Positions 22,965-58,313 of a DNA stretch of 64,000 bases are shown piece after piece. Source of the stretch: Squalus acanthias (lineage: Eukaryota); NCBI GenBank assembly GCA_030390025.1, contig CM059430.1, positions 11,098,001 to 11,162,000 of the forward strand. Direction: 5' to 3'. The notes beneath the pieces are model-generated. The model worked only from the letters and a program-made list of their open reading frames with translations, was not told the origin of the DNA and did no database searches. The translations under genes and the position numbers were made by a program. How positions within the stretch are numbered: position 1 is the first letter of the stretch; the number at the start of each line of letters is the position of its first letter.

Positions 22965-23972
22965 TTTCCATTTGTCTCTTTTACCTTGTTCATCTTCATT
23001 GCTTTCTGTTTCCCTTGTGTTTGCCTTCCATCCTATCACAGACCTTCCTTTTTGTTCTTTCTTCCCCTCCCCCCTTTCCCTGCCCCTACACTTGCTTAAA
23101 AACCTGTTACATCTCCAACTTTTTCCAGTTCTGACGAAGGGTCATCGACCTGAAACAATGGCCCAAAAATTAGTGAGGGAGCCTTCGTGCGAGGGTAAGG
23201 CTTCCCCGCGATCTCTCACTGCGCGTTGGCTTTTTCATTCCCAGCTCGCACGAACTTGATGTTCTGGACAGCTGCTGTGCTGGGCTTCCGTATCCCACAG
23301 GCGCAATTAATTCGTGCGAGCTGTGGGATCACGTGACTCAGTTAGAGCCAATGGCAGCACACCATCTTTCATTCATAGCTTTCACAACAAGTGCTGTGAA
23401 AGCTATGAATCTATACCCCCCAAAAGAACAGCTAAACCTCAATTAAATTTTTTAAAAAACCATCACATTAATAAAATAAGTATAGTTAAATAAATTAACC
23501 ATTTTAAACAAAAAATTAAATTTTTGAAAAAATTTAAAATCTTTTAAAAAGTTATAAAAATAAACTTTACCTTTCTTTAAAGTCTCTAAAAAAGATATAC
23601 CTGTTGAAAAAAATTCAAAATAATACTTAATTAACTACTTACCTTGTTAAAAGAGGGTCTTACGCCTCCTTTCTTTATGTGTAAAATCTTCCATGCTTAC
23701 CTGCGCGTTCAAAGCACTAAGTGCACTGCGTGCGCGCAGCCTGTAGCGCGCACGCGGTTCACTTAGGAACCGCCCCCTTTTGAAATCACCAAGTGCCGGT
23801 TTTCAGCGCATGCGCAGTGCATGCTGGAAACCGGCAATTGGAGACAGAATACGCGAGAGTACACAGTGCGTACTCTCGCGTAGCAACACTAATTTTTGGG
23901 CCATTAACTCTGTTTCTCTCTCCACAGATGCTGCCTGACCTGCTGAGTATTTCCAGCATTTTCTGTTTATCT
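22965..23972 (+). mobile_element. Penelope-like terminal region with hammerhead core, interrupted at 23160-23902
   Basis: CTGACGAAGGGTCATCGACCTGAAAC at 23131-23156; resumes ATTAACTCTGTTTCTCTCTCCACAGATG at 23903. Confidence 0.75.
23160..23902. mobile_element. Harbinger-like non-autonomous element, family A, copy 1 (743 bp)
   Basis: Perfect 16-bp TIR GGCCCAAAAATTAGTG; 3-bp AWT flanks; several internal hairpins. Confidence 0.85.
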
Positions 23973-24814
23973 GTAGTGATCTGTCCTTTAAGGGGCATTT
24001 TCCTGCTATGTTTATTGCAAACTATAAAGTATAATAGATATGCTGTTGGAATAAGCTTTTTCCCCTGTTTCAACCTCATAAAGGAATCAGCAACATTATT
24101 TGTTGGTTTGTTCTTGTAAATTTCTAATCCACTGATGTCTTCAGTTCGTAAAACTGAAGTGACTTGTGTAATTAAAATATTTTTTTCCTCATATGAAATA
24201 TTTTTGTGATACAATAATTGTTTTTTCTAATAATATTTGTCTACCAAATCAAATTACCCTCTTACATTCTCATTTACAGAATATGAATCACCATCCACTG
24301 GAACATTTGTTGAGCTTATTTGATTTTTACTGAACCAAGATGACCTGAGACGATTATTACTTTGGCAGCCGCATTCAGTTGTGTATTAATCACATTTCTA
24401 TGTTTTTATTTAATCCGCAAAACTTTATGAACAGATTTGTACTGCATGAATCGTGCACAAGACAGAATCGAAGAATCAAAGATCTGACTCAGGACAAAGA
24501 GCTGCACAAGGGTATAGGTGTTTGCCTGTTTGTTTGTTCTTCAATGTTTATCAAAGAAAGCTATTTGCTTTTATTGTCCTGTATGCCTGGACAATAATTG
24601 TGTCATTTTATGATACAATCTCCCATTTTGTTGGAACTTTAAAATTCCTGTATCTGAAGAGATATGGTTGCCATTCTGCTGTTCTGAAGCTCTGGTTTCT
24701 TTACTCTAGCCTAAACAAAACAACTTGCAAACAAATTCATGCCAATCCCGGATTCTACCTAGTGATCCAACTTCTACTGGGATCATTCTTTATTATTCAC
24801 ACCTTTGATCATTT

Positions 24815-26002
24815 CATAGAATTATAGAAGGACAGAAGGCAGCCATTCGGCCCATCGAGTCTGCGCCGGCTCTTTCGAAGAGCAATCCAGTTAGTCCCAC
24901 TCCCCCGCTCTTTCCCCATATCCCTGCAATTTTTTCTCCTTCAAGTATTTATCCAATTCCCTTTTGAAGCTACTATTGAATCTGTATCCACCACCCGATC
25001 AGGCAGCGCATTCCAAATCCTAACCACTCGTTGCATAATGAAGTTTTTCCTCATGTCGCCTCTGGTTCTTTTGCCAATCACCTTAAATCTGTGATGTGTT
25101 TTTATTGAACCTTCAGCCATTGGAAACAATTTCTCTTTATTTACTGTATCTAAACCATTCATGATTTTAAACACCTCTGTCAAATCTTCTCTTAGCCTTC
25201 TCTGCTCCAAGGAGAACAACTCCAGCTTCTCTAGTCTATCCGCGTGACTGTAATCCCTCATCCCTGGAACCATTCTAGTAAATCTCTACTGTACCCTCTC
25301 CAAAGCCTTTACGTTCTTCCTAAAGTGCGGTGTCCTAGAATTGGACACAATACTCCAGCTGGGGCCGAACTAGTGTTTTATATAGATTCGCATAACTTCC
25401 TGGCTTTTGTACTCTATGCCTCTATTTATAAAGCCCAGGATCCCATATGCTTTATTAACTGCTTTGTTAACCTGTCCTGCCACCTTCAGAGATTTGTGCA
25501 CAAGCATCCCCAAGTCTCTCTGTTCTTGCACCCCCCTTTAAAATTGTACCCTTTAGCTTGTATTGTCTCTCCTCATTCCTCCTACCAAAATGTATCACCT
25601 CATACTTTTCTGTGTTGAATTTCATCTGCCATGTGTCCGCCCATTCCACTAGCCTGTCTATGTCCTCTTGAAGTCTATTACTATCTTCCTCACTGTTTAC
25701 TACACTTCCACGTTCTGTTTCATCTTCAAATTTCAAAATTGTGCCCTGTACCCCCAACTCCAATTCATGAATGTATATCAAAAACAGCAGTGATCCTAGT
25801 ACTGAACCCTGGGGAACTCCACTGTCTCCTCCCTCCAGTCCAAAAAACAGCCATTCACCGCAACTCTGTTTTCTATCCCTTAACCAATTTTGTATCCACG
25901 CTGCTACTGCCACTTTTATCCCATGGGCTTCAATTTTGCTAACAAGCCTAATATGTGGAACTTTATCAAGCACCTTTTGAAAGTCCATATACACAACATC
26001 AT
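24815..26002 (-). mobile_element. CR1 LINE, RT to 3' end, degenerate
   Basis: VYMDFQKVLDKVPH, SGVPQGSVLG, C-terminal ORF2 motifs and 3' hairpin. Confidence 0.9.
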
Positions 26003-26242
26003 GTGTTTGTAAATAATTAATATTACTTGTGGAATTAATAAAATGCATATTTATATGTGTAGAACATTGTTTCTTGTTGGTTATTGTGCCTGCTGAAAAT
26101 AATAATTATTGAATAAACAATATCATGTGACAATAGTGTGTTACCTTTCTCATGTGCAATTACTGTATATACAGACAATAAATCAGTACATTTTACAATT
26201 GCAGTCCTCTGCCTAGACAGCATGCCGTTGAGAGGATTTGAA

Positions 26243-26688
26243 AGAAAAGAAAAAAGAAAGACTTGCATTTATATAGTGCCTTTCACAACCACCAGACATC
26301 TCAAAGCGCTTTACAGCCAATGAAGTACTTTTGGAGTGTAGTCACTGTTGTAATGTGGGAAATGCAGCAGCCAATTTGCAAGGTCCCACAAACAGCAATG
26401 ACCAGATAATCTGTTTTTGTTATGTGGATTGAGGGATAAATCCAGGGGATAACTCGCCTGCTCTTCTTCGAAATAGTGCCATGGGATGTTTTACGTCCAG
26501 CTGAGAGAGCAGACCGGGCCTCAGTTTAACATCTTATCTAAAAGACGGCACCTCCGACAGTGCAGCACTCCCTCAGCACTGCACTGGAGTGTCAGCCTAG
26601 CTTTATGTGCACAAGTCCCTGGAGTGGGACTTTGAACCCACAACCTTCTGACTCAGAGGCGAGTGTGCTACCAACTGAGCCACAGCTA
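26243..26688 (-). mobile_element. DeuSINE (SacSINE1-like), full length
   Basis: On minus: tRNA head with A box TGGCTCAGTTGG and B box GGTTCAAAGTCC; Deu core CTGTCGGAGGTGCCGTCTTT; L2-like tail. Confidence 0.85.
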
Positions 26689-29600
26689 CTAAGTTGACAT
26701 CCATTTTGAAGTTGCAGTTGTGGAAATCTCAAATATACCATTATACCAAATGCTGTTTAGATGTATATAGTGGTATCAGATCTGCTCTCATCTCCCTCAG
26801 CTGATGCATAAACCTAAGCCAAGTTTGGTTGCAATCAGGCAAACAGGTTGCAAGTTACTGCAATATAGACAGAAATGCCGACCAATACTTCTATTTTCCT
26901 TATTGTACATCAGTTACAGAGACAAAGAGAAATCAGTTACTTCATACAGCTACCGAGTTAGCCTAGTTCAGCACTGCATATTCATGGTTGAATGTATATC
27001 TTTAAAACACTTTGAAACATATAGAAGTTGGGTGATATCAAGGCAACCATCAAAATCTGTCCAGCAGCTGGCATTATGACAGATGTGTGAGTACTAGAAG
27101 TGACCTCCTCGTGTAATATGTCTGTGAGTGTGTTTTCAACGGGAAACTGCACCCCCTCCCGCCGCCCCCCCGTCCCCCCCCCAACAACCATTACGCAATG
27201 GGAAAACTCAGGTTTGAACAACATTAACAGGAGATGCTTGTGGTCTTTCAGTGATCAGGGAGGGCAGGCCTGTTTAGGAAGATCTGGGAGGAAGTGGAAA
27301 AAGAACCAGGAGTGGGAGGCCCTGAGATATCATTAAAGGAGATTGATACTCAGGATATATAGTGATTGTAAAAGTCTATCTCGGGACCTTCTAATGAGGC
27401 AGAAGCAATAGGTTCCTGTGCAGATCATGTGGAAGAGCAGCCCTTTTCACACAAGGACAATAAGTTTGTTCTCAGTTTGCTTTGCATATGTGTTAAACTC
27501 TATACAGAAAGCTGGTTCACCTCTGCAAAACCTCTTCACTGTAATTTTTATGCTATGCACAACAAATAAAAAAGCAATTCAGAACTAAAGGATTAAAAAT
27601 CATTACTCAGTGAAAGTGGATCATCAAGGCAAAACTTCTGTTGTTGATTTTATCATCGGAATAATTATTGTCACTCTATACTTATGCTTCAAAAGTTATA
27701 TGACACAGTTTAAATTTTGCATAATTAAGAAATAAATTTAATGGACCATAAGTAATTATTTTCATATTTTACTTCAAAGTTTTGAACTTATTCGTGTTTC
27801 TAAAATTCCATCCCAGCATCTCTTCAATAGGGTGTAACACATCATCCATTCGAGTAGGATTAATATTAGAGAGATAAAAATATTGTGGCTCATGCGAAAT
27901 GATTTATCTTTTGTTTGCCTTCAGCAATAAAGACACCACCCACACAACCTATTTACTGAGCTGCTAGAGTTCAGCTTTCTGAAAGTGTTCATTTACAACA
28001 TTTATGATGGGAAAATTAAACATTGTGTGGAAAAAAATTGTGGCAACTCATATTTATGAATAGGGACCTAATATCTGTTTGTTAAGTAGATATAAGCCTT
28101 CATTATCACAGTGTTACTTCAGACCGCCTAGTGTTTAACCTTTGTACTCTTGTTTCTATATTGAGTGCAAAGCAAATTGGACTGTACAGGTTTGAGGTAA
28201 TAGTGAAAGTTCTAGATTGTGTGTCAAGTATTTAACAAATTGTTGCCAGAAATAGCTAAAACCTATCGCCTCATTTGACCCTTAAATCAGATTCAAAAGA
28301 TGTAATTTAGAATACAAAATTACATCATATATTTAGACCAACCAACTCATTAGTGATTGACTGGTTTGTTTTTTTTACCATCTGGCCTGGTACCACTCTG
28401 CCACTGTAAAAGGATATCATATTTAATAAAAAAACTAATTCAGAGTGAGCTAAGGTTGTAATCAACTCAAGGAGTTCAAATGATATCATAAACTATGAGA
28501 GCAAAGCCCAAGTAGTATGTGAATGTCAACTGAAAACTCAGATTGCATTACCACTCTTATCCCCCACACAAACATAATCTGAAGACATTTTTTTTTAAAG
28601 TTAACTTTCCATCTATTACATGCCGGGCATCAGCATAGCTGTGAGGTTTAGTCAACATGATGTAAGAGAAAGAATATCAGAGTTGGTCGGATCATCGTGA
28701 AGTAAACTGCACCACGTGACAAGTACTTTAGTGCAACCAAGTCCTTTCAAGGCCACACAACTTGGTATTATAAATCAATTCTGGGTTAAATTCATGTTGC
28801 ATGATGCTAGCACATTAACGTGTGGGTATGAAATTTCACCGTCTGATATTTTAACAAAAGACTGTTAAAATAAATGGCTTTTGGCCTTTGTTAAAACAGA
28901 GGAATTTTATACAGTGTGATTTCACCCTACTAGCGTTAAAATCCTAAATTCTTTACTTCCATATAAAAACAATGACATTGAAATTGCTTTGGGGCACAAA
29001 AAATGGTTGATCTCATAATATTTAAAGGTTGCTGTAAAGATTTTCCCATGTATGTATAGCTGTCATTCCATAAAAAGTATAGAATGAGGAAAGGTCATTT
29101 GGTCTATCAGGCCCATTCCTTCTAATAGGCCTATCAATTAAAACAGAATTTACTCAATTGAATTTCCTGAGGGAGATGAATAATTACAGGTAAATGTTTC
29201 AAGGATACAATCTCCCCATGGTAATGTAACAAAACTCCAGAAAATGAATCTGAAATTATTTCCACAGTAATTAACCCTGACCGACTGTATTCCACGGGCA
29301 ACACCTACATAGTCTGGAGAACTGGAGTTATATTATCGATAACATATGTGATCATTTCCATCCATCCATGCTTATCCTTCAAATTTCACTCACATTAACT
29401 GGATATTCATCCCGCTATTGTTTTAAGGATTTCGAGTATTAACTGTTTTTGTTGGGAGTTGATTCCACATAATTACTCCTCCGTGCGGAAAAATCTTCTC
29501 ATTCCTATTTTTCGCTGTTCAATAAAAAATAAGAGAACTGCTCTATTTCTATTCTTAATTTACAACACAGCAACAAAATTGTTGGACTGTGCAGTTTTGA

Positions 29601-29887
29601 AACCTGCAATTCCTGTGAGTGCTATTTCATTAATGGAAACGAAAAACTAGCAGTCAGTCATGTTGCACCTGCAACAGTGATCCTTCAGCACATGTCAAGT
29701 GTTGATCCAGCAGTGAATTGCATGGTTTTGGAGAAAAATAGTTCAATGAAATCCTCGGAAGAAACATGGAGAAACATAAGCACATTTTCATGGGTAAGGA
29801 TGGCCCCCCCAGGTATGCAAAGGAGTTAACAAACAAGGCAATATGTTACTGAAATGGCCAAGCAAGAGAGAGGTTCAGAACAAATAA

Positions 29888-30292
29888 AAGAAAGAAAGAC
29901 TTGCACTTATATACTGCCTTTCATGACCATAGGATGTCCCATTACAGCCAATGAAGTACTTTTGAAGTGTAGTCACTGTTGTAATGTAGGAAATGTGGCA
30001 TTCAATTTGCGCACAGCAAGGTCCCACAAACAGCAATGTGATAATGACCAGATAATCTGTTTTTGTAATGTTGATTGAGGGATAAATATTGGCCAGGACA
30101 GCTGGGATAACTCTCCTGCTCTTCTTCGAAATAGTGCCATGGGATCTTTTACGCCCACCTGAGAGAGCAGACAGGCCTCTGTTTAATGTCTCATCCAAAA
30201 GACTGCACCTCTGACAGTGCAGCACTCTCTCAGCACTGCAGTACCAGCTTAGATTTTTATGCTCAGTCTCTGGCATAGGACTATGAACCCAC

Positions 30293-30323
<31 letters not shown>

Positions 30324-30342
30324 AACTGAGCCATGGCTGACA
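29888..30342 (-). mobile_element. DeuSINE (SacSINE1-like), full length
   Basis: Collinear with 26243-26688. Confidence 0.85.
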
Positions 30343-31056
30343 CGGTTAACTTAAAGTGCATGACTTGAAGTACAGCACCAAGGTAAGCAATAAATATTAC
30401 TGTAGAGTAATTGTATTGGACAGTTATGGACATGGCGGTAAGAAATATTTGAAAAGATATGTGGAAATGAAATAGCAGAAGTGAAATTGTTGGGTTATGC
30501 AAATTATCTGATACATGCATGATGGGGCACAGAATGTACTGCTGGAGAGAACTTCCATGAGCCAGATCAGCTTGCCTCAATCCCCACTAATCTTATGTTC
30601 AAAGGCTAAAGGCGGAAGATTTAAGCGTTATCTATCTGTTCCCAGAAAGGGTAGTCGAGATTATAGACTTCTAATGCATCTGCATTAGTTTTGAAATGTG
30701 CTCCAATACAATTCTGCTTCACAGAATGAACTAACTGCTGATCGTTCTGGGTGACGTATCACACACATAAACTACATGTAAACAAATGGCAAAGTTACCA
30801 CACTGCTGAGGTTATGCTAAAGCATTGGCTCAAAGATTGTCTTGATAACTATACAAATGCTGTGTATCGGGTCTGAATGTTGACTGCTGAGCAACAACAA
30901 TGGCAATTAAATTATCTGGATTAATGCAGAGTGAGTTGTGGAAGTGCATTAATAAAGTTTTAACATAACCTAAAATATGTTAAGTGACTCTGAGTATTTT
31001 GTTCTAGTACACTGAATTTGGGAAAATATAACTTTAAGGGCCCTTATAATCTCCAA

Positions 31057-31947
31057 GGGGGAAAAATTCAGTATCGCCCCGTTTGGGGCGCAATTATCGG
31101 CCGGGCGCAAAGATTAGCGCCTGGCGCTAATTATTGCCTCTGACTGCAAACTTGACTTTTATCGCCCCTGGAGGTGATTGGAGCGCTAAATCAGGCGCTA
31201 CACATCTGTCTTAAGGCGCAAAGGCTGAGGAGCGAGGCGCTAACTCAGAGCGCTGGCGAAGCTCATGAGATGTCAGTCAGCAATGGAACACACACACAAT
31301 GGCGCGGGCCAGTTCTTAAAGGGGAGGGTTGATCTTGCTTTCCATCCACATCCTGCTCATTGCAGCCTTGAATCTCGGCCTGGAGAGACCTGTACATCAA
31401 ATCTGCTGGAAAGAACAATGGAGAGGCCCAGGGAAAGAGCTTAGAGTGCAGCCCCCACACTCTCTTCTAAATCGATACAAGGAAGGGCAAATCAAAATGA
31501 ACCTGCAAAGTGCTGCTCAGTACCCAAAACTCCTTCACACAGCGTTGAATCTCTCCAGAAGTCTCTCTCTCTCTCTCAGAAAGCGTGGTTCAAAAATGTC
31601 GCCAACAAAAAAAGGCAGGAAGCGGTCGCCTTTAAATAGCGTTCCCCCATCCCCTTCCTGACTGCAAAACACTCCCCTCAACCTGTCGTTGCTAGCGGCA
31701 GGCGGTAAGGCAGGGGGCGCCACTCAATATCCGCTCCGGGGCGCTACCGGGGCGTTGCGCACTCGACTGACGTCATGATCTGCCAGCGCAGGGGATCGTG
31801 GCGGTACTGTTTAGCGCTGCCGCAAAATGTCTAGTTAATTTCGCGAGCGGCGCAAACATCGCCACGCCCGGGCGCTAGTTGCTTTGCGCCTCATTAGCGG
31901 CCTCTTAAGGCGCTAACGGGAGGCGCAACCAACTGAATTTTCCCCCC
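31057..31947. mobile_element. GC-rich Harbinger-like non-autonomous element, family C (891 bp)
   Basis: TIR GGGGGAAAAATTCAGT / ACTGAATTTTCCCCCC; 3-bp TSD CAA/CAA; many GGCGC repeats. Confidence 0.75.
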
Positions 31948-33380
31948 CAAAGGCCTTAAGCACAGCATGTTTTTAAAATACTTTAAATAGTTTTACTTTT
32001 TATATAGTACAGCATCTAATGCACCTTTTATCCTGTTTCCCAATTCTACAAAGCAGTTTGATCCAATATTTATGCACTCCATAGAACTACAGCATCTAGG
32101 TGATGAAACAGGATGAGGTATTAAGCAAAAGCACCTTCAGATTTACAACATTCAGAGTTTTTATTTTTATCTCAGCATGTAAATTTACAAGGCCAGTTAT
32201 CAAACTATCGGTAGAATTTTTTTAATTTGTGAAGAATCCAATGATTGCCAGTGCATTTAAGAAAGCTGAGAATTCTAGGAACATGGGAAGGTACAGGACT
32301 GGAAAAGATCATTGCAATGTTATATAAAAGTTAACATGAATAAACTATACAACCAACAGCTTGATATAACAAAAGTCATGTGGATGAAGCTCAGTGTGAT
32401 GTGATTGGCCCAAACAGATATGTTGTGGGCATTCCCAATACCAGTGCTTGAAGAATCGAGCACTTGCGTTTATTTAAAAGATAGCCAGTCTTATTAGAGC
32501 CTTAGGACTGAACATCAACTGCCCTAACATATCTCTATTAGCCAACATTATTCTCTTCAGTCAATCTGTCAACGCTATGCTTACCCTGAAGGAGACTGCA
32601 ACAGGTGCTTTATACTTCTGTCACACACAGCTCCCGTAATCAGTCTGCCCATATGACTTGATGGTGAGTATCCCATCAGTCAGCTGAGACTGTTAATGCC
32701 GCAGTAACTGTTAAAACTCTTTCCAGAGGTGCCTTGATCCTGTATCTGCATGTCCCAAAGGGAAGTCATGCTTGGGTCAGGAATTGCGTAGATATACAAC
32801 TAGTAAGGCTGTCAGTGGTGGCATGTAGGTATAAACAGGGCAAACACACACATTTCTTTCTGGCTGTTATACAGGATGTGATGTGCCTTTGTGTAATTTC
32901 ATACATCAGTTTCATATCTTGACTTAGATATAATCAAATGCTAAATGGCAGTAAACATTGCAAAACTGACTTTCAACTTGGATTTAGATGTAATTGCAGC
33001 TATCGCCCCGACATAAATGTTCTGAACCATATGCTTTTGTTTCGCCCAAACTCAAACTATGCTGTCCTATATGCTTTTCTTCTGCCCTGCATCCTCACTT
33101 TGTTCAAGCCAAGATGTTTTGTATCATCTCATATTACTCCTAGTTGTTCCTAGGACCTCAAAGCTGTGGAAATCCTAAAACTCCCTCAATTTCCCTTCAA
33201 ACTACAATTGGTTTTTAATCCTGATGTTTCTCCCAGTCACTACCTCTTGACTTACCTTGTCTTCTTTCCTACTCTTCACATTTTGTGCTGTTCCAACAAT
33301 GTGACCCCCTCACCTAGAATTCTCAATAATAAAACAACCAGATGTGTCAGGGCTGAGGCTTTTATTCGATCAGCATAGTT

Positions 33381-34418
33381 ATAAGAACACAAGAACATAA
33401 GAAATAGGAGCAGGAGTAGGCCATTCGGCCCTTCGAGTCTGCTCCGTCATTCAATCAGATCATGGCTGATCTTCTACCTCAACTCCATCTTCCCGCACTA
33501 TTCCCATATCCCTTGGTTCCCTTAGTATCCAAAAATCTATCGATCTCTGTCTTGAATATATTCAAAGAATGAGCATCTACAGCCCTCTGTGGTAGAGAAT
33601 TCCAAAGATTCACAACCCTTTGAGTGAAGAAATTTCACCTCATCTCAGTCCTAAATGGCTGACCCCTTATTCTGAGACTGTGACCCCTAGTTCTAGACTC
33701 CCCAGCCAGAGGAAACATCCTCCCAGCATGTACCCTGTCAAGCCCCTTAAGAATTTTATACATTTCAGTGAGATCACCTTTCATTCTACTAAACTCTAGG
33801 GAATATGGAATAAAAACAGAAAATGCTGGAAATACTCAGCAGATCAGGCTGAATCTGTGGAGCGAGAAACAAGAGTTAACGTTTCAGGTCGATGACCTTT
33901 CATTATAACTGAACTACGGAATATAGGCCTAGTTTACTCAATTTCTCCTCATAGGACAATCGCCCCATCCCAGCAATCAGTCTAGTGAACCTTTGTTGCA
34001 ATCCCTCTAAGGCAAGTATATCCTTCCTTAGGTAAGGAGACCAACTGTACACATACTCCAGGAGTGGTCTCACCTAGGCCCTATATAATTGCAGTAAGAC
34101 TTCCTTACTCTTATACTCCAATCCTTTTGTAATAAAGGCTAACATACCATTTGCTTTCTTAATTGCTTGCTGTACCTGTATGTTAACTTTCTACGATTTG
34201 TGTACAAGGACACCCAGATCCCTCTAAATACCAACATTTCCCAATCTCTCACCATTTAAGAAATATTCTGCTTTTCTATTTTTCCTACCTAAGTGGATAA
34301 CTTCATATTTCTCCACATTAAATTCCATCTGCCATGTTCTTGCCCAGTCACTTAACCTATCTACAGTATATCCCTTTGCAGCCTTTTTGCGTCCTCTTCA
34401 CAACTTACTTTCCCACTC
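33381..34418 (-). mobile_element. CR1 LINE 3' portion with nested Penelope fragment
   Basis: (AAGAACAT)n tail and hairpin; collinear with the 47870-48660 CR1. Confidence 0.9.
33807..33917 (-). mobile_element. Penelope-like terminal fragment with mutated hammerhead core
   Basis: 7-bp TSD GGAATAT; minus strand reads AGTT-ATAATGA-AAGGTCATCGACCT-GAAACGTTAACTC. Confidence 0.8.
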
Positions 34419-34569
34419 TCATAATAAGATGTAATCATTTGTAACAGAGCTGATGGGCTCTTTGTTTTGACTCCTTTCCAACAACTCAATCTGAATAATT
34501 TACTGGGACCCTTTCTTTTGCCTTGCATGCCAGGGAGCAGCTAGCATGTGTCCTTGTTTTTTATTGTCT

Positions 34570-34805
34570 GGTTGATTGCCAAAAATGCAGGGTGCAATTG
34601 ATAGCATGCATGTGGCTCTGAGAGCTCAAACAGATGTGCCCTTTATCATTGTGTGCGATCACCAGCACAGGATTATGCAACTGAATGCAAGGTTCCCTGG
34701 AAGCCCACACAATGTTTTTACCCTTCACCAATCCACCATTCCATGATTCTGGAGGGAGAGCAAGGATCCAGGGGCTGGCTGCAAGGGAACCATGGCTACC
34801 CTGAT
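34570..34805 (+). pseudogene. PIF/Harbinger DDE transposase fragment (HARBI1-like)
   Basis: Manual translation from 34585: MQGAIDSMHVAL...VCDHQHRIMQLNARFPGSPHNVFTLHQSTIP*, then after a frameshift GWLQGNHGYP. Matches the GAIDCTH / VCD / PGS.HD / GD.GYP motifs. Confidence 0.75.
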
Positions 34806-35618
34806 TCACCAAGATCACTATCTGCAGCAGATGAGCAGGGAATGGCCTACTCCTGTTCCTATGTTCCTATGATCCTCCACGGTAGGAAGCAGTTTATCTA
34901 GCAACCCATCCTAATTCCAAGACTTGGCACGCAGCAGCCCAGTTACATCCACTCGGGGGAGATTTAGATAGTGAGTATGAAAGGTGCACTGAGATGGAAT
35001 CACTGAGCACTGGAGAGCAGGAACAAGACGAGCAGCAAGGGAAAGAGGTGGCCCTGGCTTCTGCTCCATGATTACAAGTATGCAGGAGTCCACATCATAC
35101 ATTTGTGAAGTGATGATGCATGATATAGAAAGGATAGTCAACATGGCTTTGTCAGGGGGAGATCATGTCTGACCAATTTGATTGAATTTTTTGAGGGGGT
35201 GACTAGGTGTGTGGATGAGGGCAGTGCAGTTGATGTGGTCTACATGGACTTCAGTAAGGCTTTTGACAAAGTCCCGCATGGAAGACTGGTCAAGAAGGTA
35301 AGAGCTCATGGGATCCAGGGCAACTGGGCACATTGGATCCAAAATTGGCTTAGTGGCAGGAGGCAGACGGTGATGGTCGAAGGTTGTTTTTGTGACTGGA
35401 AGCCTGTGTCCAGTGGTGTACCGCAGGGATCGGTGCTGGGTCCTTTGCTGTTTGTAGTGTACATTAATGATTTAGATATGAATGTAGGAGGTATGATCAG
35501 TAAGTTCGCAGATGACACAAAAATTGGTGGGGTGGTAAATAGCGAGGAGGGAAGCCTCAGGCTACAGGACGATATAGACGGGTTGGTCAGATGGGCAGAA
35601 CAGTGGCAAATGGAATTT

Positions 35619-38600
35619 AAGAACATAAGAACATAAGAAATAGGAGCAGGAGTAGGCCAATTGGCCCCTCGAGCCTGCTCCGCCATTCAACAAGATCATG
35701 GCTGATCTGATCCTAACCTCAAATCTAAAGAACACAAGAAGTAGGAGCAGGACCCGGCCACTCAGCCCCTGGGCCCGCTCTGCCACCCACAGGGCCTTGA
35801 CCAATCCGAACTCAGCCTCATGTCCAATTTCCTGCCCGCTCCCCATAACCCCTAATTCCCTTTACTTCTAGGAAACTGTCTATTTCTGTTTTAAATTTAT
35901 TTAATGATGTAGCTTCCACAGCTTCCTGGGGCAGCAAATTCCACAGACCTACTACCCTCTGAGTGAAGAAGTTTCTCCTCATCTCAGTTTTGAAAGAGCA
36001 GCCCCTTATTCTAAGATTATGCCCCCTAGTTCTACTTTCACCCATCCTTGGGAACATCCTTACCGCATCCACCCGATCAAGCCTCTTCACAATCTTATAT
36101 GTTTCAATAAGATCGCCTCTCATTCTTCTGAACTCCAATGAGTAGAGTCCCAATCTACTCAACCTCTCCTCATATGTCCACCCCCTCATCCCCGGGATTA
36201 ACCGAGTGAACCTTCTTTGTACTGCCTCGAGAGCAAGTATGTCTTTTCTTAAGTATGGACACCAAAACTGTATGCAGTATTCCAGGTGCGGTCTCACCAA
36301 TACCTTATATAACTGCAGCAATACCTCCCTGTTTTTATAATCTATCCCCCTAGCAATAAAAGCCAACATTCCGTTGGCCTTCTTGATCACCTGCTGCACC
36401 TGCATACTAACTTTTTGATTTTCTTGCACTAGGACCCCCAGATCCCTTTGTACTGCTGTACTTTCCAGTTTCTCGCCATTAAGATATTGGCCCAGAAATT
36501 TGACTCGGAGGCTTGCCGCGGGGGTAAGGATTGCGCGCGATATCACACTCCGCGCCGGCCGTTGTGTTTTGGGCCCACAGGAACTTCGGGTCCTGGGCCT
36601 CTCCCTGGTGCCGGCGCGCAGTGTGTGCGTGTCCCAGGGGCGCAGTTAGTGCGATGCGACCTCTGGGATCACGTGGGCCATGGAGAGCCAATGGCAGCAG
36701 ACTATCTTTCATTCATAGATTTGACAGGAGACATGTCAAATCTGTGAATTGAAAGAGACCCCAAAAGAACAGCTAAACCTCAAATAAATTTTTTAAAAAA
36801 CCATTACATTAATAAAATAACTATAGTTAAATAAATTAACCACTTTAAACAAAAATTTAAATTTTTGAAAAAATTTTTTTTTTTTTAAAAGTTATAAAAA
36901 TAAACTTACCTTTCTTTAAAGTCTCTAAAAAAGATAAACCTGTTGAAAAAAATTAAAAATTATACTTAATTAACTACTTACCTTGTTCAAAAGGGGTCTT
37001 ACGCCTCCTTTTTACATGTGTAAAATCTTCCATACTTACCCTCGCGTTGAAACCTGAAAAAAAACCTAAGTGTGCTGCGTGCGCACAGCCTCTAGTGCGC
37101 ACACGGTTCACCTAGGAACCGCCCCCTTTGCCATACCGGAAGTGCCGGTTTCCCGCGCATGCGCAGTGCATGCAGGAAACCGGCACTTCGCGATCTAATA
37201 CGGGTGAGTACACAATGCGTACTCTCCCGTATTAGGCCGAATTTTGGGGCCAATAATTTGCTCTCTGATTTTTCCTGCCAAAGTGCATAACGTCACATTT
37301 TCCAATATTGTATTGCATCTGCCAAATCTCCGCCCACTCACCCAGCCTGTCTATATCCCCTTGTAGGTTTTTTATGTCCTCCTCACTTTCTACTTTCCCT
37401 CCCATCTTTGTATCATCTGTAAACCTTGATATGTTACACTCGGTCCCCTCCTCCAAATCGTTAATATAGATTATAAAGAGTTGGGGACCCAGCACCGACC
37501 CCTGCAGAACACCACTGGCTACTGGTTGCCAGTCCGAGAATGAACCATTTATCCCAACTCTCTGCTTCCTGTTAGATAACCAATCCTCCACCCATGCCAG
37601 AATATTACCCCCAATCCAGTGATTTTTTATTTTGAGCAATAATCTTTTATGTGGCACCTTGTCGAATGCCTTCTGGAAGTCTAAATACACTACATCCACT
37701 GGTTCCCCTTTATCCACCCTCTACGTTATGTCCTCAAAGAACTCAAGCAAATTTGTCAGACATGACTTCCCCTTCATAAAGCCATGCTGCCTTTGTCCTA
37801 TTAAATTATGTTTATCTAAATGTTCCGTTACTGTCTCCTTAATAATAGACTCTAAAATTTTACCCACCACAGATGTTAAGCTAACTGGTCTATAATTTCC
37901 AGCCTTCTGCCTACTACCCTTTTTAAATAAGGGTGTTACATTAGCAGTTTTCCAATCTGCCGGGACCTTTGCTGAGTCCAGGGAATTTTGCAAAATTATT
38001 ACCAAAGCATCCACAATCCCAACTGCCACTTCCCTCAAGACCCTAGGATGTAAGCCATCAGGTCCAGGGGATTTATCCGCCTTGAGTCCCCTTATTTTAC
38101 TGAGTACCAATTCCTAGTGATTTTAATCGTATTTAGCTCCTCCCCCCCTAGAGCCCCCTGTTTGTCCAGTGTTGGGATATTCTTAGTGTCCTCTCCCGTA
38201 AAGACTGAAACAAAATATTTGTTCAGCATTTTTGCCATCTCCATGTTTCCCACCATTAATTTCCGGTCTCATCCTCTAAGGGACCTATGTTTGCCTTAGC
38301 CACCCTTTTTCTTTTTATATAACTATAGAAACTCTTGCTATCTGTTTTTATATTTTTTGCTAATTTATTTTCATAATCTATCTTCCCTTTCTGAATCAAT
38401 CCTTTAGTTACTTTTTGCTGTCTTTTGAAGACTTCCCAATCTTCTATCCTCCCACTAAGTTTGGCTACCTTATATGTCCTTGTTTTTAGTCGGATACTAT
38501 CCTTAATTTCTTTACTTAGCCAAGGATGGCTGTCATTTCTTTTACACCCTTTTTTCCTCAGTGGAATATATTTTTTTGAAAGTTGTAAAATAACTCCTTA

Positions 38601-39555
38601 AATAAACACCACTGCTCATGTACCGTCTTACCCTTTAATCTATTTTCCCAGTCCACTTTAATCAATTCCGCTCTCATACCATCATAGTCTCCTTTATTCA
38701 AGCTCAGTACGCTTGTTTGAGAACCAACCTTCTCACCCTCTAATTGGATATGGAATTCAACCATGTTATAGTCACTCATTCCAAGGGGATCCTTAACTCG
38801 GACATTATTAATTAATCCTGACTCATTACACTGGACCAGGTCCAAGGTTGCTTGCCCCCTTGTAGGATCAGTTACATACTGCTCAAGAAATCCATCCCTA
38901 ATACACTCAATAAACTCTTCCTCAAGGCTGCCCTGCCCAATTTGATTTGTCCAGTTAATATGATAGTTAAAATCCCCCATAATTATAGCTGTTCCCTTAT
39001 TACATGCCCCAACTATTTCCTGATTAATACTTCTTCCAGCAGAGTTGCAACTATTAGGAGGCCTATATACTACTCCCACTAGTGTTTTTTTCCCCTTATT
39101 ATTCCTTATCTCCGCCCAAACTGTTTCATTATCCTGATCCTTTGACCCAATATAATTTCTCTGTATTACAGTGATTCCTTCCTTTATTAATATAGCCACC
39201 CCACCCCCCTTCCTTCCTGCCTGTCCTTCCTGATTGTTAAATACCCTGGCATATTTAATTCCCAGTCGTTGTCACCCTGCAGCCATGTTTCTGTAATGGC
39301 CACAAGATCATACCCATACGTAGTTATTTGTGCCGTTAACGCGTCCATTTTGTTACGAATGCTACGTGCATTCAGATAAAGAACTTTCAAATATGTTTTG
39401 TGACACTTAGTTCCTGCTTTTTCCTTTTTTAACACTTTACCTTTTACTCCATACCTTCTGTCCCTTCCTGACACGCTTTCCTCTGTCTCCCTGCTCAGGT
39501 GCCCAACCCCCTGCCACTTTAGTTTAAACCCTCCCCTGCCACTTTAGTTTAAACC
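35619..39555 (-). mobile_element. Long CR1 LINE (endonuclease + RT + 3' UTR), frameshifted, nested in the plus-strand CR1
   Basis: LYLNARSIRNK, AITETWL, GVVYRPPNS, MGDFN, KSPGPDG, YRPVSLTS, DFQKAFDKVPH, FTDDTK motifs. Confidence 0.92.
36489..37251. mobile_element. Harbinger-like non-autonomous element, family A, copy 2 (763 bp)
   Basis: GGCCCAGAAATT ... AATTTTGGGGCC; interrupts CR1 ORF2 at NY|YLNGE; flanks ATT/AAT. Confidence 0.85.
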
Positions 39556-40519
39556 CTGAAAAGTGTGAGGTGATGCATTTTGGGAGGACTAACAAGGCAA
39601 GGGAATACACAATGAATGGTAGGACCCTAGGAAGGACAGAGGATCAGAGGGACCTTGGTGTGCATGTACATAAGATCCTGAAGGCAGCAGGACAGGTAGA
39701 TAAGGTGGTTAAAAAGGCATATGGGATACTTGCCTTCGTTAGCCGAGGCATAGAATATAAGAGCAGGGAGGTTATGATCGAGCTGTACAAAACGTTAGTT
39801 AGGCCACAGCTGAAATACTGTGTGCAATTCTGGTCGCCACACTATAGGAAGGATGTGATTGCATTGGAGAGGGTGCAGAGGAGATTCACCAGGATGTTAC
39901 CTGGGCTGCAGCGCTTCAGCTATGAAGAGAGACTGGACAGGCTGGAGTTGTTTTCCTTAGAGCAGAGAAGGCTGAGAGGGGACCTGATTGAGGTGTACAA
40001 AATTATGAGGGGCATAGATAGGGTAGATAGAAAGGAACTTTTCCCCTTAGTAGAGGGGTCAATAACCAGGGGGCATAGTTTCAAGGTAAGGGGCAGGAGG
40101 TTTAGAGGGGATTTGAGGAAAAACTTTTTCACCCAGAGGGTGGTTGGAATCTGGAACTCACTGCCTGAAAGGATGGTAGAGGCAGGAACCCTCACAACAT
40201 TCAAGAAGCATTTAGATGAGCACTTGAAACGTCATAGCATACAAGGCTATGGACCAAGTGCTGGAAAATGGGATTAGAATAGACAGGGCTTGATGGCCGG
40301 CGCGGACACGATGGGCCGAAGGGCCTCTTTCTGTGCTGTATAACTCTATGACTCTATGAAAGCATGCAGACATCCTTGGAGCATGTGCAAGCTCCAGGGC
40401 CACCTGATGTGAGACTGAGTAGCCTACTTTTTGTGCTTATTTCCATTGGTCCCACCAAAATTGGACTATAGGGATCAGTCTCACGGCACTACTTCTACTA
40501 CTTGAGTTTCTCCTTTGTG

Positions 40520-42310
40520 TCTCACTGACCAGAACTGGACATAGAACGCTAGGTGCGGTCCGACTAGAGCACAACTTCCTCCGATTTGTATTCTACTGTT
40601 CTGTCTATATAGTTCAACATTTTACTGGCTTTGTTTATTGCTGCTCTCTATTGGTTGGACATGTTGAATGTCGAATTTACTAAGACTCCTCGATCTCTTT
40701 TGGCTTTTCCCTTGGTTGTGTCACCATCATTCATGGAGTAGGTGTGCCACTTACTATTTTCTTATGTGCAGTATTTTATATATGTCTGGATTAAATTTCA
40801 CCTGCCCTTGTTCTGCCCACTGACACGTGTTAGCCAACTTGCTTTGTAATTTCTGCCTCCTCTAATTCCACTTCTCCTTCTAGTTTGTTATCATTTGCAA
40901 ATTTGACCACTTTGTATTGAGATTCTGAATCCAAGTCATTTATGTAATTTAGAAACAGACACGGCCCTGATACCAAACCCTAGGTTACTCCATTTAGTCC
41001 TTCTCCCCACCCTGACATAACTCTTCTATTGAGTACTCCTTTTTTAATCTTCAGCTCATTTGTCACCTACTCTCAGGGTTTACCATGAACCCCTACAGCT
41101 TTGAGTTTAACTAATAACCTTTTGTGAAGAACATTGTTAAATACCTTTTGGAAGTCTAGGTACACCATGTTGTTTGGTGTTCTACAGTCTCAAGGAAGTT
41201 GGTCAAGCAAGATCTTCTACTTCTGAATCAGTGTTTATGAGGTTATCACTGTATAGACATTCTTGAATTTTAATCCTGATATCAATTCCTTTATTTTACA
41301 TGGAATGAAATTATAGCATAGAATCATAGAATAGTTGCAGGACAGAAGGAGGCCATTCTGCCCGTTGAGCCTGTGCCGGCTCTCTGCAAGAGCACTTCAG
41401 CTAGTCCCACTCCCCCGCCCTTTCCCCGTAGCCCTGCAAATTATTTTCCTTCAGGTACTTATCCAATTCCCTTTTGAAAGCCACGATTGAATTTGCCTCC
41501 ACCACCCTTTCAGGCAGTGCGTTCCAGATCCTAACCACTCGCTGCATAAAACAGTTTTTCCTCATGCCGCCTTTGTTTCTTCTGCCAATCACCTTAAATC
41601 TGTGTCCTCTGGTTCTTGATCCTTCTGCCTATGAGAGCAGTTTTTCTCTATCTACTCTGTCTAGACCCTTCATGATTTTGAACACCTCTATCAAATCTCC
41701 TCTCAACCTTCTCTGCTCAAAGGAGAACAACCCCAGCTTCTCCAGTCTATCCACGTAACTGAGGTCCCTCATCCCTGGAACCATTCTTGTAAATCTTTTC
41801 TGCACCCTCTCTAAGGCCTTCACATCCTTCCTAAAGCGCGGTGCTCAGAATTGGACACAATACTCCAGTAGAGGTCGGAGCAGTGTTTTATAAAGGTTCA
41901 TCATAACTTCCTTGCTTTTGTACTCTATGCCTCAATTTATGAAGCCCAAGATCCCGTATGCTTTTTAACCGCTTTCTCAACCTGCCCTGCCACCTTCAAC
42001 GATTTGTGCTCATATACCCCCAGGTACAGAACTAATGATCTGTAGTTGCCTGTGTCTGTTTTGTTATCATTTTAGAATATGGGCACCATGTTAATCTGTT
42101 TCCAATCTAGTGGTACCTTTCCAGTGACTCAGTTACAATAATTGTCAATGCCTAACAAATTTCCTTCATGGCCTCGCTCAACACTGTTGGACAAATACCA
42201 TCTATCGCTGAAGATTTATGTTTTGATTGATTTTCCTTAGGTTATCTCTGTTTGGGGAAGGCATGTTCCTTGTGTCTTCCCTCGTGAATACTTGGAGGAA
42301 ATAATCATCT
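40520..42310 (-). mobile_element. Old degenerate CR1-like LINE, interrupted by a younger CR1 at 41315-42025
   Basis: Remnant RT motifs on plus strand as reverse complements (tcatttgcaaattt, ccttttggaagtctagg, tgatctgtagttgcc). Confidence 0.55.
41315..42025 (-). mobile_element. CR1 LINE 3' fragment
   Basis: LERVQKRFTRMVPG, RVVRIWNALP; 3' hairpin and tail. Confidence 0.9.
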
Positions 42311-43312
42311 CCCAACCGCCCCCCCCCCCCCCAATTAAAATAAATTTGCAAGCTATTTGTACATAATAGAAGTATAAAGTGAGTCTGGAATTATTTTTTA
42401 GACCATCTCACTTTATTATACAGTTTACAACGTTCATTAAAAAACTTGTTCCTTATACCTCTCTAAATTGCATTTCACTAAATACAACCTACTATTAGCA
42501 GATTACATTTCCAAAATCCACAAAAATGTTTTCAACCACTCGACCACCAGAATAAATGATCAAAGGACATGCAATTTAAAAAGCTTTAGTTTGTAGTGGG
42601 AATCAGATTTTTTTCTGCCAAGGAGGCCAAATATTGAGTATTTTTATCCATAGGAATGCATTTCAATAACTGGTATTTTCATTTTTAAAAACCCTAAATG
42701 ATAGGGGATTACACTCAACCACCATACAAACAAAACATGATATGCTTGCAACAGGAGTGAGAACTTTTGAGACAGCCCCTTACGCAATCTGCACGCATTC
42801 GCAGTGAGTTTCAAGTGTGTTTTGTATCTTTGTGACAATGCTGTACAAATATAACCTTTTTTTTAAAAGAAGTTTTAAAATATAATCTTTCAATAGTGTT
42901 TTTAGGTTAAAGTGAGATGTGCATTCTTAAAGGAACCACTGTCTTCATATAAAAAAAAATAAAAACACAGTATGAGGAAGAGAAAGAGTCAGAAGAGCCT
43001 GGTGTTAGTTTCATTACCATGATGTCACACATAAGTGGCATGGTGATGTGTTCCAGTGCAAATAAATGAGAAGGACTTGTGGAGCTTTTTTTGTACATAA
43101 AAGTGGTTGTCCAATCTTGATGAATATTTACATCGATGGTTTGGAACAGTCAGTTCCACCTAGTGTGACCAGGGCAATCGCACAGGAAATACACAAAAAC
43201 ATCTCAAACACCTTTCACCTGTCCTAGAAAGAGGTGGTCCGAAGTATTTTATTAAGATATTTGTAAATAATGCCGTTTTAAAGTCTGAAAAATGCTTGAA
43301 ACAGTATAAAAT

Positions 43313-43380
43313 GAAAGAAAGACTTATATTTATATAGCGCCTTTCATGACCTCAGGATGTCCTATAGTGATTCACAGCTC
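43313..43380 (-). mobile_element. DeuSINE/L2 tail fragment
   Basis: aaagaaagacttatatttatatagcgcctttcatgacctcaggatgtcc. Confidence 0.6.
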
Positions 43381-45054
43381 TTATTTACGCTCTTAGCTGA
43401 CCAACTATTCAGTATTTTTGAGTTGGTTAATAAGCCATTAATAGAAATTAGCTTCGTGGCTTCAAATCTTGATGAATATTAATTGAAAGCAAACACAATT
43501 TTTTTTTTACATGAACTAGCAGACGGAGCACTTTGTCTCTGAAATTATTGAAATACATTCAGCCCAATACCAGTTAAGCTGAACACTTCTGAAACAGATT
43601 TCTGTACTGCGGCTTACACATTATTTCCTGGAGTGAAGCAGAAATATTTATTCTTTTAGGGTTCCCTGATGTCCACTTCAGTGCATTTGGAGGTCAGGAT
43701 TTGCACATTTACAGTTTAGTTACTCCATGTCAAAGGCACTACTGAAACTGATGAAGGCAACATAGCGACTGACTCATTTGAAACTGATTATACAAATCGC
43801 ATAATGAAAGAGCATGCAGACCTCAAGAACGCATGAGTAATGAGCTTCAAGCATTGGGTTCCATAAATACGCCAACGCATACTTCATTGGAAAAATGTCT
43901 TTACTTAGAACAATCTAAACCTACAGAGAAATAAACCCGCTTGTGAATTTTTCCAAAACGAAACATTTGTGTAGTCACGCAAAAGCATATTTACTTTAGC
44001 ATGTTGTTATACACGCGATACTCGTTTGAGACCAATACCTTCTCAGGGAACGCACAGGGAGGCAGGTTCGGGAAAATAGAGCTCTGCCCAAGTGTGCTTC
44101 CTTTCATGGCTCCCTGCTAACGTGAAAAAGTGCTGGAGAACCTTTTAGACAGTTTTACACCAATTGCAGTTATACTGCCAAAGCAGTGTGAGATTATCTT
44201 CTCAAGATAGTGTCACGCTGCTTGGCTCAATTTGATGCACATCAGAATTACATAAAAAATGCATTAATTCAAAGGCCAGAAACTTTGCATTGGCATAAAC
44301 AGAGTATTAAAACTAGTCCATTACATTCCTCTATATGATGAGTCTGCACAGGCTGCTAGTTAGCCGTGCATGCACTGTGCACTTAGCTCGTCTCTGGCTC
44401 CTGGCCTAATTGATGTCAACAGGACCTTCAAGTCAGTCATGTTTTACTATAGTCATATGCTTTATACACATGTATGTTTTCAGAGGACTTCTAAACGATT
44501 GGCTTGGTCACCATCATAAATTGATTTTCCTTTCCCCGCCTTAACAATAAGCGGCTTTTTTTTCTTTTTATTCACTTCTTTCCTCTCCTTTTTCATTCCC
44601 TTCCTCCTACTCCTTAGGTCCCCCTCATGCCACACACCATTTTCCTGGTCAGTGCCCAGCCATGCATCCTTTCTATATTTTTTGCTTACCACTCTTGCGT
44701 AGCATTAGTGTGCATGGACTAATGCTCTGATTATTCCTCTGCCTAAGGGAAATCACTTGTCTCCAATCAGCTGTGTTCTCAGCAGAGTTTAAAATGTTAT
44801 TCATCAAGTAAGGTAAATGACTCTTGTTTATTAGGGGTTGGTGGGAAGGAGCGCTGTGGTGATTTTGTACTGAAGATGAAGGATGTTAGTACAGGGGAAT
44901 AGGATACTTTTCCACTTGTTTGGACTCAGGTAATGTATTAGTATTAACTGCAGGTCAAAGTTAGAGCAAAGGTCCGTATAATTGTTGGTCTTTAAACTAT
45001 TTCTATAAACTGCTTGTGATAATAAGCATATTTTTACTGATGTGATAACACCCT

Positions 45055-46627
45055 GCGGTAGAGTTTCCGCTAGGTTACGCTGGTTTGAAGAGCGCGAGTT
45101 GCCTGAAATCAGCCAAACCAGCGTAAAAGGTCGAGAAATTTCAAGCGCAAGTTATGTCCAGTGCAAATCAAGTTTCCACGATATTTTACGCTGGTTTAAA
45201 AAACATTGGCCCAGAAATTCACGTGTCCAGCTTGCCGCGGGGGTAAAGGATCGCGCGCGCTCTTACCTACCACGCCTGCTGTTGTGTTTTGGGCCCACGG
45301 GAACTTCGGGTCCTGGGCCTCTCCCAACTGCCGGCGCGCAGTGCTTGCGTGTTCCAGGGGCGCAGTTAGTGCGATGCGACCCCTGGGATCACGTGGGCCA
45401 TGGAGAGCCAATGGCAGCAGACCATCTTTCATTCATAGATTTGACAGGAGACCTGTCAAATCTGTGAATTAAAATCGGCCCCAAAAGAACAGCTAAACTT
45501 AAAATAAATTTTTTTTAAAACCATCACATTTATAAAATAACTATAGTTAAATAAATTAACCACTTTAAACAAAAATTTTTGAAAAAATTAAAATACTTTT
45601 TAAAAGTTATAAAAATAAACTTACCTTTCTTTAAAGTATCTAAAAAAGATAAGCCTGTTGAAAATTTTTTAAAATTATACTTAATTAACCACTTACCTTG
45701 TTCAAAAGGGGTCTTATGCCTCCTTTTTATTAGCGTAGTATCTTCAATACTTACCCTCGTGTAGAAACCTGAAAAAAATCTAAGTGTGCTGCGTGCACGC
45801 AGCCTCTAGTGCGCACGCGGTTCACCTAGGAACTGCCCCCTTCACCATACCGGAAGTTCCGGTTTCCCACGCATGCGCAGTGCATGCAGGAAACCGGCAC
45901 TTCGGGAATGAATATGGGTGAGTACGGACTGTGTACTCACCCGGGAAGGGCCGAATTTTTGGGCCATTGTGCTGGAAGCCGGCCCCGCCCACAAAACTGG
46001 CCCCGCCCCCAGATTGAATTAATGAGCTTGGCGAGTTTCCGTCAATTACGCCCATTTGCGGCCCTTCAAGGAGGCGCTTCAAATTAAGCTGGCTTTTTAG
46101 GTTCAAAAGTTTTTAAATATTAAAAATATTTAATTGACTATGAAACTGACTACTGTACACCAACGAAACTAGTAAATGGTTCAGTATTGTTATTTAAAGT
46201 GATTTTCAGTTATTTAAAATCAGGTTACTCACAGGTGGTGGACTAGACACTCTTATTAAAAATGCTTATTTTTGGTGATAAACCCATTTTCAGCTGTATT
46301 AATAAAACTGCATCAGGTTCTCTTAAATACATCAAGGAATATTTTTTAATGCAAGGGGAAAATAATGAATAATTACATTCTAAAACGTTGCCTGATTGCG
46401 CTGGTTCATGGAAGATTCCACTTTCATGATTATGCAAATGAGTTTGAGCGGTAGCTTGAGCCATAACTTCACTTTGGAAAACCAGCGCAATTTCGAGCAC
46501 AATTTGCACCTGGATTGCCGATTGCGCCCAAAGCAGAAAATCTACTAAGTTGCACTTACGCCTTATTACATCAATTTGTAAAATGGGCTGGCGACTCACT
46601 ATTTTACACAAAGTCAAGATCTACCCC
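45055..46627. mobile_element. Harbinger-like element family B (inverted vs 21181 copy), hosting family A copy 3
   Basis: Ends GCGGTAGAGTTT / AAGATCTACCCC; 45970-46530 is a reverse-complement match to 21200-21730. Confidence 0.65.
45208..45965. mobile_element. Harbinger-like non-autonomous element, family A, copy 3 (758 bp)
   Basis: GGCCCAGAAATTC ... GAATTTTTGGGCC; perfect TSD ATT/ATT; highly similar to copy 2. Confidence 0.85.
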
Positions 46628-58212: not shown

Positions 58213-58313
58213 CACAACCTATTCCCTGAACTCCGAAAAATGGAAGAATTTAAGAGCAAACTTAACAGGAAATGCTTATCTCTGTGAGCACTATTGATTC
58301 CAACAAAAATGAT

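Follow-up and report, generated by a model that had tools for sequence, protein, structure and literature searches.

What keeps the two arms of a hairpin complementary when the sequence of both arms changes? The question is raised by a stretch of 64,000 nucleotides from Squalus acanthias (GenBank assembly GCA_030390025.1, contig CM059430.1, positions 11,098,001–11,162,000 of the forward strand; hereafter the window), in which an initial annotation had noted three copies of a Harbinger-like element of about 750 bp with internal hairpins that appeared to covary between copies, and had proposed that structure rather than sequence is being maintained. In the analysis described here, the element is a non-coding cut-and-paste transposon with Harbinger-type ends, whose hairpin arms probably, although by no means certainly, stay complementary through template switches that copied arm from arm in the founders of its subfamilies; a structured functional RNA is unlikely.

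Ends, footprint and coding capacity of the element

The whole-element statistics given below are based on three full copies in the window and on contig pile-ups. All three copies were found where the initial annotation had placed them, and the stems quoted for them were read correctly (Table 1). Copies 2 and 3 are 88% identical to each other and copy 1 is 79% identical to each of them, so the window holds two subfamilies, with copy 1 in subfamily 1 and copies 2 and 3 in subfamily 2. In every copy, the ends read GGCCC..GGGCC and the terminal inverted repeats (TIRs) GGCCCA(A/G)AAATT, with a length of 12–16 bp, and the element is flanked by a 3-bp A(A/T)T insertion footprint. The host repeats of all three copies have empty paralogues within the same window, relative to which the filled sites carry the element and three extra bases in five of five alignments. 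At the three insertion sites, the flanks match the palindrome A-N-N-Y-[triplet]-R-N-N-T at 11 of 12 positions, and five of the six half-sites match fully. PHIS (Harbinger-superfamily) TIRs are mostly shorter than 60 bp and start with A or G (PMC4482050), and an extended palindromic target preference has been described for Harbinger elements (PMC2836001, PMC3016246). Judged by the three structural features examined, namely short TIRs, a 3-bp duplication and a palindromic target, all of which are present, the element is a non-autonomous Harbinger-superfamily transposon that would work like the Tourist type.

Six frames of 66–152 aa that lie within copies 2 and 3 or extend beyond them were scanned, out of 21 plus 14 listed, and none has a Pfam match. 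An autonomous partner would share the ends of the element and encode a DDE_Tnp_4 transposase and a Myb/SANT protein; the 64-kb window encodes neither a transposase open reading frame of at least 150 aa nor a partner protein. With Harbinger-type ends and footprint, the element remains, as first described, a non-coding Harbinger-like DNA transposon. Judged by its repeats, the host genome is of a shark-like type. The family is high-copy: parts of copy 2 are present in 20 runs from 10 studies with at least seven organism labels, and 11,445, 3,651, 2,381 and 444 contigs can be aligned on it in four of these runs. The local density is about one copy per 21 kb (three in 64 kb), and each of three labelled organisms contributes contigs by the thousand, so that the family would be a large natural data set from which template-switch rates in a vertebrate could be measured.

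Hairpin arms that change in pairs

The GC-rich ends of the element fold far beyond shuffled sequences, about equally on the two strands. In all 12 segment and strand tests with RNA parameters z lies between −3.4 and −8.8, and with DNA parameters it is −4.2 to −9.1; the AT-rich middle has no excess folding (z −0.3 to +0.8, six of six tests); structure is thus restricted to the terminal 200–280 bp. The initial annotation had seen the same series of stem-loops in all copies, which holds for four stems in the centre and at the right end but not at the left end, where an arm of copy 1 (23242–23254) pairs with 23311–23323, whereas the homologous stretch of copies 2 and 3 has another partner, some 20 alignment columns beyond. 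Folding gave no support to the c(TTCG)g tetraloop that had been ascribed to copies 2 and 3, as its closing pair lies on an A.G mismatch and the minimum-energy fold has an 8-nt loop in copy 2 and a lone pair in copy 3; copy 1 is without it.

For the scoring of covariation, stems were defined from one copy alone, as runs of at least six Watson–Crick pairs, and another copy was then scored against them. Between copy 1 and copies 2 and 3, double changes that keep the pair were counted at 5 of 93 pairs against 0.75 expected, 6 against 1.23, 7 of 102 against 1.25, and 8 of 82 against 1.56 (Poisson p 0.002–0.0002, the four comparisons sharing events). Between copies 2 and 3, the corresponding counts are 0 against 0.40 expected and 1 against 0.20, and when copy 2 is set against copy 3, 18 one-sided breaks and no rescued double change are found in 102 pairs. 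In a consensus fold, two-sided changes occur in 15 of 212 pairs, a value reached by none of 500 shuffles, and slid-partner controls give 1–2 pairs instead of 15, in both cases with a fold derived from the same three sequences. The individual changes are those originally reported: hairpin H1 differs between copies 1 and 2 by C:G>A:T, C:G>G:C and one T.G, and the terminal hairpin differs between copies 1 and 3 by C:G>G:C and A:T>T:A. Covariation above chance is therefore real, between subfamilies only, on three sequences and with no phylogenetic correction.

The contig pile-ups (40 of 134 variant rows listed) extend these observations within subfamily 2. In the rows listed for four runs, 36545 A>G is found in 28, 52, 61 and 69% of depth, and its partner change in left-end stem A, 36624 T>C, in 10, 73, 65 and 89%. 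At 36733, 37103 and 37191, copy 2 carries private bases that break a pair, and the family has the pairing base in 88–100% of depth (C in 96–100% at 36733). Because double changes are found between subfamilies while one-sided and private breaks are found within subfamily 2, pairing is a trait of subfamily founders that single copies lose freely; the inserted copies decay freely and show no sign of selection on them. Two runs with the same organism label, X1 and X11, have opposite majority alleles at 36545, 36624, 36625 and 37096, with X11 resembling organisms B and D, a contrast that may come from contig weighting or from differing representation of subfamilies.

Template switching is known to produce several compensatory changes at once, to lengthen stems or form new ones and to invert loops (PMC8794818), and marks of each kind are present in the element. 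The 7-nt loop of the terminal hairpin E in copy 3, when reverse-complemented, equals the loop of copy 1 at six of seven positions (chance 0.0013) as against three of seven in the forward direction; four point changes in this loop by ordinary mutation would have p 0.005, and the A.C pair flanking the loop has turned into G.T in copy 3. A strand switch at the terminal hairpin is also found in 3 of 15 listed joints, each in single contigs of runs X1 and X6. Hairpin E of copy 2 has gained four outer pairs, the TIR of copy 1 is longer by four pairs (16 bp and perfect, against 12 bp and imperfect in copies 2 and 3), and the re-partnered left-end arm of copy 1 forms a new stem of 13 bp.

A fold selected as RNA is expected to tolerate G.U pairs on one strand. 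One-sided changes leave 30 G.T and 32 A.C pairs over six comparisons, and 19 of each when only the four that overlap less are counted. The strand bias sought is thus absent, and the counts favour neither strand as the RNA strand; among non-Watson–Crick pairs of core stems that are common to two copies or to the pile-up, four are G.T and three are A.C. Moreover, the unstructured middle is the best-kept part of the element: between subfamilies, the hairpin-bearing ends differ by 30% and 20% and the middle by only 9% (Fisher p 1.7e-8), whereas copies 2 and 3 diverge evenly along the element (11–13%, with 11% in the middle). Since the 9% between subfamilies is not above the 11% between copies 2 and 3, the founders must have shared a near-identical middle, by constraint or by module exchange. 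On the minus strand, the middle carries donor-like and pyrimidine-rich acceptor-like sites, from which an intron of 100 nt, an exon of 30 nt and a second intron of 168 nt that finishes in an H1 arm are predicted. With the promoter-like motifs of hairpin D upstream, the middle would correspond to a promoter and 5' untranslated region kept from a gene of the parent element. The proposal that structure rather than sequence is maintained survives in one part: complementarity of the arms is kept while their sequence changes, but the maintenance of a functional fold is not supported, given the inverted loop, the re-paired left end, the lineage-specific extensions of stem and TIR, the balanced wobble counts and the better-kept unstructured middle. 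The data match the case that the initial annotation itself had named against its proposal, that is, template-switch homogenisation with no strand bias.

In the mechanism proposed, a Harbinger-superfamily transposase pair supplied in trans would mobilise the element, and template switches during replication or post-excision gap repair would create new stems, lengthen existing ones, mend mismatches and flip loops; founder copies would then transmit the switched hairpins to many descendants, which would decay neutrally. An existing palindrome would be self-maintaining in this way, so that no RNA function is needed; element-level selection for symmetric binding sites may act in addition but is not required by the data. 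Compensatory changes, often regarded as proof of an RNA stem, stand here beside marks of DNA self-copying and show no strand bias, which calls for caution in their use.

Several points weigh against this account. Only three full copies were aligned, representing two subfamilies and effectively one branch, and the covariation test is not phylogeny-aware. Each strand-switch joint comes from a single contig matched at 80% likeness, and repeats can produce such joints. Template switching acts in true RNA genes too, and its signatures are therefore compatible with selection (PMC8794818). In H1, each double change affects one pair only, the two lying at a distance of four bases, and a one-sided mutation followed by templated repair explains them as well as selection does; mutation alone leaves unexplained why the four central and right-end stems occupy the same positions in both subfamilies. 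Fold z-scores slightly favour the plus strand, in five of six end segments with RNA parameters and six of six with DNA parameters, and copy 2 as a whole has z −10.1 on the plus and −7.4 on the minus strand; the copies are related, however, and raw energies show no such lean.

Table 1. Positions of the element copies, their flanking triplets, hairpins and splice-like sites in the window (c1–c3, copies 1–3)
Feature	Position	Strand	Remarks
Copy 1 (subfamily 1)	23160–23902	+	743 bp; perfect 16-bp TIR; host site, 3' tail of a long or short interspersed element (LINE/SINE)
Copy 2 (subfamily 2)	36489–37251	+	763 bp; imperfect 12-bp TIR; host site, CR1-like LINE
Copy 3 (subfamily 2)	45208–45965	+	758 bp; imperfect 12-bp TIR; sits inside another TIR element
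Copy 1 left triplet AAT	23157–23159		right ATT 23903–23905; middle base differs; 3 extra bases relative to 3/3 paralogous empty sites
Copy 2 left triplet ATT	36486–36488		right AAT 37252–37254; middle base differs; empty site AAT
Copy 3 left triplet ATT	45205–45207		right ATT 45966–45968; matching duplication
Hairpin H1, copy 1	23371–23410		perfect 16-bp stem
Hairpin H1, copy 2	36711–36749		two pair-keeping double changes relative to copy 1; private break at 36733
Hairpin H1, copy 3	45431–45469		18-bp stem, 3-nt loop
Left-end stem specific to copy 1	23242–23323		arms 23242–23254 / 23311–23323; perfect 13 bp
Left-end stem A, copy 2	36544–36625		joint shift of 36545 A>G and its pairing base, 36624 T>C, over four runs
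Hairpin C	37065–37116 (c2), 23717–23766 (c1), 45780–45829 (c3)		
Hairpin D around GCGCATGCGC	37139–37189 (c2), 23786–23844 (c1), 45846–45910 (c3)		holds promoter-like motifs
Terminal hairpin E, copy 2	37195–37235		four added outer pairs, lacking in c1 and c3
Terminal hairpin E, copy 1	23850–23882		loop 23863–23869
Terminal hairpin E, copy 3	45916–45942		loop 45926–45932 inverted relative to c1 (23863–23869) and c2 (37212–37218)
AT-rich middle, best-kept part	36742–37039 (c2)	-	predicted splice sites: GT(A/G)AG donor-like 37039, 37002, 36981, 36909; acceptor-like YAG 36940, 36742
Homologous donor-like sites of the middle	23700, 23663, 23642 (c1); 45754, 45696, 45624 (c3)	-	

Selection on DNA, selection on RNA, or chance

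The strongest competitor, which we nevertheless regard as rather unlikely, is that the stems are selected as DNA, either as inverted sites for a Myb/SANT partner protein or as hairpins and cruciforms that assemble the transposition complex, with subfamily-specific repeats tracking their proteins. Selection of this kind is compatible with template switching as the origin of the changes, and it would account for covariation between founders only, where selection for mobility acts, for the confinement of structure to the terminal segments, and for a 10-mer, TTCGTGCGAG, that occurs three times at the left end of copy 1 (the third at 23184–23193) and is absent from copies 2 and 3. However, no single motif recurs throughout the arms of these hairpins (H1, C, D and E), the arm sequences differ between subfamilies, and the window contains no gene for a partner protein. 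Contigs of DNA runs in which internal stretches are skipped also exist: 12 such deletion joints are listed, with 12 of 24 ends inside stems (stems make up 39% of the element), for which no enrichment is claimed. CTTAC/CTCAC repeats were considered as Myb-partner sites and are not claimed as such, as the assignment would rest on motifs of domesticated Harbinger proteins, and the literature consulted gave no such motif for comparison.

The target duplications bear on a further possibility. The two triplets are identical in one of the three copies and differ at the middle base in the other two, and in both of these, copies 1 and 2, the empty site is matched more closely by the right triplet, of which the left triplet is the reverse complement. 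Under assumed rates, ordinary decay would yield two such A/T swaps among three copies with a p of about 0.003. From these three sites, the mismatches would reflect either homogenisation of the inverted repeats outward across 750 bp, as suggested by the lengthened TIR of copy 1, or donor bases carried on the element ends. Mismatched target sites have a precedent in piggyBac. For mPing, excision has been proposed to proceed through staggered cleavage within the duplication, giving 5' overhangs (Gilbert et al., PMC4561436), and cleavage of this type would leave duplication bases on the element, which could then be carried over from the donor into the new site. The mismatched duplications provide a purely computational test of Harbinger-type cutting and joining. 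In its most far-reaching form, which we consider speculative and doubtful, the element would represent a vertebrate Pangu-like Harbinger family with an ANT target that carries three donor bases in the fashion of piggyBac, hence the mismatched duplications, and whose single-stranded ends fold and template themselves, so that the hairpin arrays would be selected DNA structures rebuilt by jumping, with the conserved splice cassette shaping how host transcripts are handled.

Less probable again is a structured RNA, either a transcript spliced from a right-end promoter or small-RNA precursors, whose fold is selected as RNA. Strong folding, real double changes and the slight plus-strand lean of the z-scores are all in its favour, as is an excess of GGTAAG on the minus strand in the best-kept part, downstream of the promoter-like motifs of hairpin D, which we take to be ETS/NRF1 sites. 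Per copy, this motif is found two, three and four times (ends included) against 0.19–0.26 expected. Yet the splice motifs indicate the minus strand and the fold lean the plus strand, and the features expected of a structured RNA, namely a shared fold with kept loops and G.U pairs on one strand, are not found in view of the inverted loop, the different register at the left end, the tetraloop that is not predicted, and the G.T:A.C count of 30:32. Rfam returned nothing at gathering score across the window, and its seven matches to copy 2 at E<5 are all far below that score. In run X11, which we guess to be RNA, the one listed joint (37064–37149) does not correspond to a predicted intron and gives no evidence either way. 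Other splice-like arrangements were noted in the element: a long-range inverted repeat (36517–36531 / 37032–37046), present in the consensus fold in all three copies, pairs a plus-strand donor-like motif at the left end with a minus-strand donor; the H1 arms (36702–36718 on the plus and 36742–36758 on the minus strand) each hold a pyrimidine tract and YAG, as head-to-head acceptor-like sites; and each arm of hairpin E in copy 3 reads as donor-like GGGTGAGTA.

Finally, an origin of the double changes by chance, or by CpG decay on both arms of stems picked afterwards, is very improbable and largely refuted: sequences are few and 37085:37096 G:C>A:T is indeed CpG decay on both arms, with copy 3 half-way, but the other double changes are mostly transversions (C:G>A:T, C:G>G:C twice or more, A:T>T:A), and both the excess over stems set from one copy alone and the slid-partner controls on the same-sequence structure contradict it.

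Searches for relatives and the surroundings of the element add the following. A 16-mer query gave 60 matches in viral contigs, which are taken as chance, a 20-mer query had no match in metagenome or genome contigs, a 24-mer query had none in genome or viral contigs, and the plasmid collection contained no match to the element. Two metagenome matches of the 24-mer (L061:629–652 and L062:309–332) were rejected as relatives, since by eye they belong to an unrelated repeat with only the hairpin D 24-mer in common. A scan of the window for TIRs with adjoining triplets gave eight candidate pairs, two of which are copies 1 and 3, and no further clear element with an AWT or TWA footprint. The TIR element that hosts copy 3 (45056–46547, ends GGTAGA..) has an inverted paralogue at 21184–21920, and its end segments fold moderately (z +1.1 to −4.0). 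A 137-bp element at 46844–46980, with TIRs of about 19 bp, folds strongly (z −4.6 and −6.1). CpG-rich, repeat-like islands lie at 31600–31950, 58310–58600, 59700–59930, 54450–54760 and 14760–14930, several with donor-like GT(A/G)AG, and 58315–58520 and 59740–59930 appear to belong to one family, either as its two ends or as separate copies. On the minus strand, an open frame of 331 aa (2180–3175) with a Forkhead domain (Pfam E 5e-37) terminates at a likely splice donor. This frame presumably resembles exon 1 of FOXF1, and the rest of the window would then lie upstream of FOXF1.

Relation to known elements and to template switching

The literature search returned no earlier account of this family, nor of a DNA transposon with internal hairpins that covary; Repbase and Dfam lay outside the search, and the family is possibly catalogued there. 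[quoted passage not shown] It differs from mPing and Harbinger3N_DR in its A(A/T)T triplet, which is neither TWA nor CWG, in two mismatched duplications out of three, and in its length of 750 bp with at least five local hairpins and an internal splice-like cassette. The TWA duplication given for strict PIF/Harbinger elements in PMC13668399 was not found, as all six flanks read AAT or ATT.

Within PHIS, the Pangu group described by Han et al. (2015, PMC4482050) has ANT duplications and TIRs of 11–40 bp that start with AG or GG; the element has an ANT duplication, too, and TIRs within this length range that start with GG. However, the 15 genomes listed for the group include no vertebrate, and its definition also takes in a transposase of the Pangu clade and a second open reading frame of no known motif (PMC4482050). 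Should the transposase of the present family belong to that clade, an ANT-target family of this kind would bring the Pangu pattern to vertebrates.

The changes in the hairpins resemble those attributed to hairpin template switching (Monttinen and Loytynoja 2022, PMC8794818) in their compensatory pairs, in stems that are lengthened or newly formed, and in loops that are inverted. The cases described there are rRNA and microRNA genes under selection, in contrast to a DNA transposon whose inserted copies show no sign of it. MITEs with predicted secondary structure have been published, together with a fold-back model for one fish MITE (PMC5172404). This is Angel, a vertebrate MITE whose ends are palindromic and richer in GC and whose centre is A/T-rich, like those of the element described here, and it has been proposed to fold back during replication (Izsvak et al., via PMC5172404). 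Angel forms one long stem-loop, whereas in the present element the TIRs are short, the hairpins local and numerous, and the 3-bp footprint is regular, which points to insertion by a transposase.

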